From a virus (taxonomy: Duplodnaviria; Caudoviricetes), in the IMG/VR virus record IMGVR_UViG_3300035498_000732, positions 1 to 64,000 of that record: 64,000 nt of DNA; one strand, written 5' to 3'. Positions 1,618-24,400 of this stretch are shown here, piece after piece; within the stretch, counting starts at the first letter, position 1; the number at the start of each line of letters is the position of its first letter. The position numbers and the translations under genes are program-made. The notes beneath the pieces were generated by a model, which was not told where the DNA came from, ran no database searches, and saw only the letters and a list, made by a program, of their open reading frames with translations.

Positions 1618-1950
1618 TTATGAATTAGGTAATGTGACAGAACCACATAATGGACAAATATAACTCAGTCTTGGGTTAATCACTATGAATTTGCCACATG
1701 AGCATCTAGAATAACTAGTTTTCAATTTGGATTTGTATTCAAAGCTAGTCATATAATCAACTAGAGCATCTATACTCTTATCCAATCCAATTAACTTTTG
1801 ATCCACAGTGAGATCTCCATAAATAGTATTGTAATATTTATCTCCTTTCGTTATTTTATCTACTGTAGTCTTTATAAATTCTGTATCTGTATCATCTACT
1901 TTCATTACTTTATCTACAATAGTTTTTACAAATTCTTCATTGGTGTTCAT
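1618..1950 (-). CDS. Hypothetical protein with C-terminal Zn ribbon
   Basis: CSCG...CPLCG; short internal repeat EFVKTIVDK/EFIKTTVDK; AAGGAG RBS. Confidence 0.7.
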   Translation of the reverse strand: MNTNEEFVKTIVDKVMKVDDTDTEFIKTTVDKITKGDKYYNTIYGDLTVDQKLIGLDKSIDALVDYMTSFEYKSKLKTSYSRCSCGKFIVINPRLSYICPLCGSVTLPNS

Positions 1951-12793: not shown

Positions 12794-13163
12794 TTATATG
12801 GTGGTAAAGCAAGAACAGCATGAGCTGGAAGAGGATAAGTTTTATTATGATATTGACTTTAAGGAAAAAGAAGATTTATTAGATAATATTGTAAATGAGG
12901 AGATTCAAAATTATTATATACTAGAATTAGGATATAAGAATCCTGAAGATATATATCTTAATGAAGAAACTCAGAAAGAACTCATAAAGACAATAACCTA
13001 TAGAATATACACTAAGAGAATGACAGCTGCTGTAATGTCTACTTTATCACATTATTATATATTTGGTAATGATACAGAATTGCAAAAGATAATATTAGAT
13101 AAAGTATCTCTTGGAATATTGAATCTTACTTTATCTACAAATACCACAAATATAAAATTGTGA
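12705..13163 (+). CDS. Membrane-anchored hypothetical protein
   Basis: Hydrophobic N-terminus; GGAG RBS at 12693; overlaps upstream gene by 89 nt. Confidence 0.65.
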   Translation: MYMVLILVLIIVLALFQIPLWILILKILPDYMVVKQEQHELEEDKFYYDIDFKEKEDLLDNIVNEEIQNYYILELGYKNPEDIYLNEETQKELIKTITYRIYTKRMTAAVMSTLSHYYIFGNDTELQKIILDKVSLGILNLTLSTNTTNIKL

Positions 13164-13414
13164 GAAAATACGGATGGCACTAAGCCATCCGCTTTTTCTG
13201 TCGTTATTTGTAGAGGAAGAAACGACGAGGTTTTTAATATGGGTCTAATCAACCCAGGGAAGGTTCGGCATACGGTGCGGATGGCAAGCCAAGGTTGTAA
13301 CAAATATAACTCAGAGACATGCATAAGTTAATGAAAGATGAGGCCTACCATCTCTTCGTACACCACGATGACAGATGGCCACGGCTGCAAGGATGAAAGT
13401 TACCGCAACCATCT
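13163..13414 (-). ncRNA. Candidate ~250-nt late multi-hairpin RNA with CU-rich loops
   Basis: TACA-N6-TA promoter 13425-13414; 13-bp 5' stem; further hairpins; bidirectional terminator 13164-13199. Confidence 0.6.
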
Positions 13415-13463
13415 AATAATATGTATGTGTATTAATAAAAAAAAATAAGATACACGTAGTACC

Positions 13464-14273
13464 TTATTTTTTATTTTTCAAATAAATATCTGACAAGATG
13501 CTTAGTAAGTCTTGTAAGAATCTTATATTCGTACTCGTGTCTACTAGTGGAATATCTATAGAATTTATATTTGAAACCACATAGGAATTTACATGTGATC
13601 TAAATACATACCCTGATAATATATTAAAATCACGGTAATATCCTGGGTCAGGTGATGACTTGGTAAGGATTACTTCTAAATATTGCTGAGAGAGTTTTAT
13701 TGCTTCCTCAGCTCCACTACTTAGTAGCTTGTAGAACATGTCACATAAGAATTTCATCATGTAATTCCTGTGCAATTCAAGCATACCATCATTAATTCCT
13801 TTGACATCTATAGTTTCTTCTCCATTCATTCTATCATATCCATAATATATTTCTAGATTTCCTATACGTATATAGGCATCATAGTGATTAGCAATCCTAA
13901 ATTCAATGTTTTCAAACTTAGTACATTGACAGGGATTCCCTATTACAAAGATTGCATCACTCTTAATAGATAATATATCACCATCACTTAGATGGTTTGA
14001 TTGAATAAATCTTTTTCGAAACTCTTCTATCCCTTGGGATTTTAATTCAGATATTCTAGGATCATTTCTTTGCATCATACCAATGTACACTTCTCTATAG
14101 TGCTTATCTGAATTATATAGATTGTCATACAGTTCTCTACTTATTGCTCCCATAAATAAGAGAACGTTGATATTAGCTTTTATTATATCATACTCCGTGA
14201 TATACTGTCCTACGATATATGGAATATTAGATATATAATTGGATCTTTTCCATATCTCATCCATTGTCATCAC
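13464..14273 (-). CDS. Short family B DNA polymerase-like (palm domain) protein
   Basis: Motif A-like EYDIIKAN and motif C-like SIKSDAIF; no exonuclease domain. Confidence 0.55.
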   Translation of the reverse strand: MMTMDEIWKRSNYISNIPYIVGQYITEYDIIKANINVLLFMGAISRELYDNLYNSDKHYREVYIGMMQRNDPRISELKSQGIEEFRKRFIQSNHLSDGDILSIKSDAIFVIGNPCQCTKFENIEFRIANHYDAYIRIGNLEIYYGYDRMNGEETIDVKGINDGMLELHRNYMMKFLCDMFYKLLSSGAEEAIKLSQQYLEVILTKSSPDPGYYRDFNILSGYVFRSHVNSYVVSNINSIDIPLVDTSTNIRFLQDLLSILSDIYLKNKK

Positions 14274-24246: not shown

Positions 24247-24400
24247 TTCTTTACTTTTCCTTTCTTTTATTTTTAGTAATTCTTCAGTAGTACATATTTC
24301 TTATATTTAGCCTCCTTATTTATTTATACTACCGTATTTACACTATTATAATATACAACTGACTTATATTTTAATATAAATAGAAAGAGAGGAATCATAT

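Follow-up and report, generated by a model that had tools for sequence, protein, structure and literature searches.

A candidate structured non-coding RNA with a late-type promoter-like site in a variable intergenic slot of an AR9-like giant phage

The analyzed window, a stretch of 64,000 nt (positions 1 to 64,000 of the IMG/VR record IMGVR_UViG_3300035498_000732; coordinates refer to the window unless stated otherwise), contains on its minus strand an element that very probably specifies a structured RNA. From the predicted start the RNA comprises 252 nt (13414-13163, minus) and consists of four stem-loops followed by an intrinsic terminator. The element probably constitutes a late-type transcription unit of its own. 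Our preferred, still tentative, description is that of an independent gene, transcribed as such a unit and carried as lineage cargo, whose product is a structured non-coding RNA of about 250 nt, stable and acting in trans via its loops; that the RNA is a base-pairing regulator is possible, and more doubtful as a claim. A role in cis or as an antisense transcript, a non-functional insert and small peptides are all less likely than either base-pairing or protein-binding. An earlier first-pass annotation of the region had described a late RNA of about 250 nt, whose pyrimidine-rich hairpin loops could shut off early genes. The discrete structured non-coding unit of this size is supported here by the strand-specific fold, the promoter-like site and the intrinsic terminator.

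The record is a giant-phage fragment of 126.7 kb representing about half of the genome (CheckV 52%), and its source is an uncultivated AR9-like giant (jumbo) phage. The element is located between gene A (13464..14273, minus) and the convergent gene B (plus, ending at 13163). Gene A belongs to PHROG 21037 and has homologues in the Bacillus phages AR9 and PBS1, as well as in jumbo phages of Staphylococcus, including S6, PALS_2 and MarsHill. The AR9 counterparts of genes A and B, g239 and g240, are the last genes of two early operons that converge, with 41 nt between them; the homologous gap is 54 nt in S6 and 10-50 nt in most of 80 IMG/VR relatives. Since the gap is short in AR9, S6 and most of the IMG/VR relatives, the element of about 250 nt is considered an insertion in the lineage of the source phage. 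The gene A family is also conserved in Listeria LPJP1 and in approximately 100 IMG/VR giant-phage contigs, with 22 invariant residues including several Asp, one His and a Lys-Gly-Ile-x-Asp stretch, and its product is probably an enzyme.

The folding potential of the region depends on the strand. The minus strand of 13160-13430 folds with -85.3 kcal/mol (z -5.1, none of 200 shuffles being as good), while the plus strand of the same region has a z of -1.84. This asymmetry arises because G.U pairs, four of which are found in the first 13-bp stem, turn into C-A mismatches on the plus strand. The GC content of the element is 0.39-0.455, compared to approximately 0.26-0.30 in the flanks. In the structure, taken from the minimum-free-energy and centroid folds, pair probability is at least 0.9 at nearly all predicted helix positions, and only a few pairs at helix ends have lower values.

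Two bidirectional terminators bound the unit. The first, T1 (13436..13476, identified in the sequence by its inverted repeats), lies at the end of gene A, overlapping its stop codon, and has a 9-bp AT-rich stem (arms 13445-13453 and 13459-13467) with A and T runs on either side. It is followed on the minus strand by the late-type promoter-like site TACA-TATTAT-TA (13414..13425), with the predicted start at A13414. Hairpin 1 (13373..13414, minus; RNA 1-42) begins at this very base, as the first-pass annotation had stated: its 13-bp stem (RNA 1-13 / 30-42) closes a 16-nt loop, AACUUUCAUCCUUGCA, that contains CUUUCAU and CCUUG. Domain 2 (13266..13365, minus; RNA 50-149) is predicted to form a long irregular hairpin, whose inner helix begins with AGAUGGU and ends with GCCAUC, as in hairpin 1, and whose large AU-rich apical region again carries CUUUCAU and CCUUG. 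A single-stranded linker with AACCUUCCCU (13257..13265, minus; unpaired probability at least 0.9) leads to hairpin 3 (13240..13256, minus; RNA 159-175), predicted with a 6-bp stem and the loop UGAUU. Then follow the single-stranded linker AUAUUAAAAACCUC (13227..13239, minus) and hairpin 4 (13200..13226, minus; RNA 189-215), with a 6-bp stem and a 15-nt loop containing UCUUCCUCUAC. The second terminator, T2 (13163..13199; RNA 216-252), has a 9-bp GC-rich stem with six G-C pairs, the loop UUAGU and a subsequent U tract. It was found on both strands by the terminator scan (shuffles gave 0.2 +/- 0.4) and, while ending the RNA, it also serves gene B (stop codon 13161-13163, plus). T2 is bracketed by an 18-nt inverted repeat (13126-13143 / 13205-13222, 83% complementary), and therefore the loop of hairpin 4 nearly repeats the last codons of gene B in inverted orientation; the repeat may be a footprint of the insertion event.

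With this architecture, the element could act mainly in cis: the late promoter would face the 3' end of an early operon that runs towards it, and the fold together with T2 would set the level of antisense transcription into gene B or insulate the operons, the RNA having no function in trans. The convergent early operons closed by g239 and g240 in AR9 are in line with such a role, as is the fact that AR9 late promoters drive non-coding antisense RNAs (Lavysh et al. 2017, PMC5312081). Moreover, the 3' arm of domain 2 has a perfect alternative pairing of 9 nt with the 5' arm of T2 that could compete with the folding of this terminator. However, the partners of this pairing are separated by 84 nt that include two stable hairpins, T2 with its GC-rich stem is strong, and a strand-specific, GC-enriched fold of 250 nt exceeds the needs of an insulator. 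We regard a mainly cis-acting element as quite unlikely.

It is even harder to reconcile the region with a gene for a small protein, and we give this option very little credence. Two candidates were considered, a leaderless hydrophobic peptide of 33 aa (minus, 13412..13311), with a hydrophobic start followed by basic residues, and a basic peptide of 30 aa (plus, 13239..13331), whose GAGG eight nt upstream makes a good ribosome-binding site. Neither matches any family, and neither has a counterpart in the nearest relative described below. Moreover, the minus-strand AUG at +3 is embedded in the 13-bp stem, and the ORF on the plus strand is preceded by a terminator and not by any promoter-like site.

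Transcription of the unit can be compared with that of AR9, where the late promoter is AACA-N6-TA/G with the start at its last base, early promoters form a long AT-rich motif, and the virion polymerase is reported to be sensitive to single deviations in the promoter (PMC5312081). The site at 13425-13414 is one mismatch away from the late consensus, and its predicted start, A13414, is also the first base of the first stem. As in AR9 late transcripts, there is a site resembling AACA-N6-TA/G with the predicted start at the final A, while the differences from AR9 are TACA in place of AACA and the absence of any such unit from the 41-nt gap between g239 and g240. The source phage itself has 24 AACA-N6-TA/G sites located 18-105 nt upstream of called gene starts, all but one ending in TA (23/24). 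In most of them TA is followed by AT(T), which is absent at 13425-13414. TACA variants are also found upstream of the genes at 24339, 32136 and 34979, and the version of the site in the nearest relative is TACA-TATTAG-TA. The label "late" assigned by the first-pass annotation is based on TACA-N6-TA, which is near the AR9 late consensus but has one mismatch and is not followed by the usual AT(T). Given this promoter-like sequence, late transcription of the element is plausible. The early motif of the source phage is ATT[AG][CT]ATA[AT]TAT, followed by 6 nt and the start, with ten copies in the record; the site at 13425-13414 fits it poorly (CATA instead of ATT[AG]) and was rejected as an early promoter. 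No sigma-70-like promoter stands out at the element.

The bases predicted to be unpaired are poor in G (8 G among 114). The sequences quoted by the earlier annotation are all present on the minus strand, and the CU-rich segments it named are all predicted to be unpaired, including AACCUUCCCU, AUAUUAAAAACCUC and UCUUCCUCUAC. Unpaired CCU/UCC triplets are somewhat enriched, numbering 8 against 3.7 +/- 1.9 in dinucleotide shuffles (p ~0.04), while the canonical anti-Shine-Dalgarno 5-mers are not (2 unpaired against 0.7 expected, p 0.2), and only one CCC occurs in the unpaired segments. Pyrimidine-rich loops thus exist, though their composition departs only modestly from expectation.

Such loops had been proposed to act on particular phage genes, loop 1 blocking the ribosome-binding sites of the early genes 54437 and 54877 late in infection. 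The pairing itself exists, comprising 10 bp (one of them G.U) and covering the AAGGAUGGAA site upstream of both genes; both are preceded by early-type promoters, and against the 54326 leader alone loop 1 performs 1.8 sd better than shuffles. However, when each unpaired segment was paired with the start regions (-30 to +15) of the 133 called genes in the record, loop 1 with 54437/54877 (-13.6 kcal/mol) ranked only 3rd-4th of 133, and a better best partner was found for 87 of 100 loops shuffled with composition preserved. As paralogues, moreover, the two genes represent a single event. The shut-off of 54437 and 54877 thus rests on a pairing no better than chance and is very unlikely. The three other segments are not above chance either, 62%, 18% and 33% of shuffles doing as well. 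Among ten early-promoter leaders compared with the unpaired segments none stands out and nothing consistent appears, and no perfect complementarity of at least 11 nt was found on any start region of the whole record. The 48-kb fragment of the nearest relative yielded no homologue of the proposed target, which is uninformative.

The element shows traces of internal duplication. Out of five copies of the 9-mer GCCAUC[CU]G[UC] in the 127-kb record, four are inside the element, where it provides the 3' arm in hairpin 1, the inner helix of domain 2 and the terminator. The first two of these share the order AGAUGGU...CUUUCAU...CCUUG...GCCAUC, and at four stem positions the two differ on both sides with pairing kept (U.G to A-U, C-G to G-C, and G-C to C-G twice). 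These compensating changes were read from the sequence by hand and depend on the two units being related, since the score of their alignment is only marginal (equalled by 22 of 500 shuffles); a MAFFT alignment of the two units did not put the arms in register. At the sequence level, the pattern is compatible with duplication of a unit whose loops were conserved while its stems covaried, as would be expected under selection on the RNA. GATGG/CCATC is denser at the element than anywhere else in the 127-kb record. A single further local peak, at genome positions 97,600-98,100, outside the window, falls in a gene with a long acidic repeat region rich in Asp, Gly and Glu. A link to a restriction site (GGATG) was considered and discarded, since the genome shows no avoidance of this sequence. 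A perfect 15-mer, ACAAATATAACTCAG, is shared by 13300-13314 and 1654-1668 (plus), the latter inside the minus-strand gene 1618..1950; the copy at 1654 has the same sense as the mRNA of that gene and is therefore not an antisense target.

Searches for relatives of the RNA returned the element itself at most. The whole window has no match in Rfam 15 at gathering thresholds, and with E-values up to 10 only chance-level hits were obtained for 13050-13550 (12.8-22.6 bits against cut-offs of 38-100). The families covered included RsaE, RNAIII, 6S, pRNA, ROOL, GOLLD, ribozymes and riboswitches, so that this check, suggested by the first-pass annotation, revealed no match to any known RNA class. Nothing credible was found by Rfam on 20 related loci (gathering thresholds) or on the nearest relative (E-value mode). 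BLAST against GenBank phages gave no match for the element in the distant mode or for the 12 kb around it in the near mode. Exact and gapped pattern scans of IMG/VR yielded only chance matches in GC-rich or coding DNA, and two 20-21-mers of the element were absent from 185,000 prokaryote genomes. A synteny survey via gene A homologues provided 80 IMG/VR and 80 metagenome loci, against which blastn (first 80 and later loci) and nhmmer (first 80 only) found nothing resembling the RNA; the covariance model R1, run on 98 loci and on the complete records of five phages, AR9 and S6 among them, retrieved the element itself only. No tRNA or tmRNA was detected in the element by scanning, no CRISPR-repeat-like or tRNA-like module was seen, there are no tandem repeats, and comparison of its small ORFs (both strands) with Pfam and PHROGs gave no family. 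Judged by these searches, the RNA belongs to no described family.

Only one of the 80 IMG/VR and 80 metagenome loci, L023, is close to the source phage, with gene A 63% identical. Its flanks are approximately 82% identical in DNA sequence to window 13508-13411 and to gene B at 13165-12700. The former segment covers the end of gene A, the upstream terminator T1 and the promoter up to +4, all of which are thus kept in L023, whereas the body of the element (13410-13166) shows no similarity. Behind the same promoter, L023 has an unrelated RNA of 640 nt (L023:3840-4478, plus) without credible ORFs and with its own terminator, which folds with -210.6 kcal/mol and z -8.4 on the promoter strand, compared to z -3.3 on the other one. 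In this RNA, too, the first stem begins at +2, with UUUCCAUCUUCC in its loop. This RNA has no match in Rfam or GenBank phages (distant-mode BLAST in the latter case) and no significant enrichment of CU-rich loops. Since the flanks match and the body is unrelated, the promoter appears to have been kept and the RNA exchanged, which speaks against a role as a conserved core regulator of early genes. Together with the gaps of 41-54 nt in AR9 and S6, the different body in L023 identifies the element as lineage-specific, swappable non-coding cargo.

More distant relatives have other inserts in the same slot. In L050 it is occupied by a tandem array (L050:3825-4135; 125-nt unit, 2.5 copies, 86% matches), each unit of which contains a palindrome CTCCCATC-CGAA-GATGGGAG, and both strands fold strongly (z -9.8 and -12.3). 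In L038 the slot holds 524 AT-rich bases (L038:3802-4325) with no ORF or folding signal and with many short GATTCA/AATCA-like motifs spaced by roughly 20-40 nt; the insert looks like an array of binding sites.

The element might alternatively be a non-functional insert or an element acting at the DNA level, such as a foreign scar at a recombination hot spot or a protein-binding palindrome array. Consistent with this, it is an orphan with no relatives in any search, the slot varies across relatives and contains repeat arrays in L050 and L038, and duplicated fragments occur nearby (the 15-mer shared with 1654 and the inverted repeat around T2). However, the strand asymmetry based on G.U pairs is not expected of a DNA palindrome or random foreign DNA, and the unit is bounded by terminators and has a promoter-like site exactly at the first stem. 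This explanation therefore seems unlikely.

An RNA that binds protein, acting as a decoy or scaffold (for example, in anti-defence or host takeover), is a more serious competitor, although we do not consider it probable. In that case, the GAUGG/CCAUC helix and the conserved loops would serve protein recognition instead of being antisense seeds. The helix core occurs three times with a spacing of approximately 100 nt, in the region of the top GATGG/CCATC density; no RNA target was found in the record; the exchange of cargo behind a kept promoter is the turnover expected of arms-race functions; and the slot holds other repeat-rich inserts without ORFs in distant relatives. On the other hand, no protein could be identified as the partner, Rfam returned nothing and no known class of decoy fits, and GGA motifs are missing from the loops on the RNA strand. 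In view of the helix occurring three times, the absence of targets and the fast turnover of cargo, protein binding is nearly as likely as base-pairing.

In the preferred scenario, that of a trans-acting RNA working through its loops, the element would have been inserted as lineage-specific cargo between two operons that are convergent, and early in AR9. The non-virion RNA polymerase of the phage would start at A13414 from the late-type TACA-N6-TA site, terminal structures, the 13-bp stem placed at +1 and the terminator hairpin at the 3' end, would protect the RNA ends and make the molecule stable, and the two bidirectional terminators would insulate the unit. The RNA would then act in trans via its G-poor single-stranded loops, where CUUUCAU and CCUUG appear to be kept in two duplicated hairpin units with compensating stem changes. 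These loops could pair with purine-rich RNA, for example, with ribosome-binding or start-codon regions, and the target may be a host RNA rather than a phage one.

Among known systems, RsaE/RoxS, RNAIII of S. aureus and the streptococcal csRNAs are multi-hairpin RNAs whose G-poor, C/U-rich unpaired segments pair with Shine-Dalgarno and start-codon regions in several mRNAs. The RNA described here is likewise multi-hairpin, with G-poor C/U-rich unpaired segments, and by analogy it would work most like these Firmicutes regulatory RNAs with C/U-rich loops. Unlike them, it has CCU/UCC rather than UCCC/CCCC, no Rfam match and no target above chance, and it is phage-encoded, with a putative promoter for a phage polymerase. 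Phages are also known to encode stable, highly folded RNAs that are not mRNAs, such as RNAs C and D of T4 and the pRNA of phi29, whose family is included in Rfam; the element resembles none of them in sequence or structure, and its genomic context is different.

The closest precedents in giant phages with their own RNA polymerases are the intergenic small RNAs of 201phi2-1 and phiKZ, short non-coding units revealed by ONT-cappable-seq with the start site and terminator within approximately 250 nt (PMC11512511). Those were mapped as transcripts in Pseudomonas phages, and one is conserved across genera, whereas the element is predicted from sequence only, in an AR9-like phage with Firmicutes-type relatives, and has no RNA relative. 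The search for regulatory RNAs in giant phages with their own RNA polymerases is only beginning, and the element, with its promoter-like site, start-proximal stem, four hairpins and terminator, is an unusually clean candidate.

The arrangement of the locus also resembles the PeSL cassettes of T4-type phages, which are present as many repeats per genome and flank protein-coding ORFs (PMC2839356, PMC4122927). As with PeSL, a conserved block of terminator plus promoter borders a segment replaced between close relatives. Unlike PeSL, the block has only one matching place in the 127-kb record, with no dispersed copies, and the cargo is a non-coding RNA. Given that an unrelated large folded RNA lies behind the same promoter in L023, phages may exchange non-coding RNAs in the way they exchange accessory genes, and their counter-defence and host-takeover factors would then have to be sought among such RNAs as well. 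A broader version of this idea, which we consider speculative and rather doubtful, is that the conserved module of terminator and late promoter drives interchangeable, unrelated structured RNAs, so that the slot would be a site of non-coding cargo exchange, with 250 nt of cargo here, 640 nt in L023 and repeat arrays in more distant relatives. If true, such a slot would parallel, on the non-coding side, the accessory ("moron") genes of phages, and its RNAs could possibly counter host defences or match the phage to a particular host. The heptamer CUUAGUG (loop and closing bases) is identical in T2 of the window (13178-13184) and T1 of L023 (L023:3796-3802), while the stems of these two terminators are completely different.
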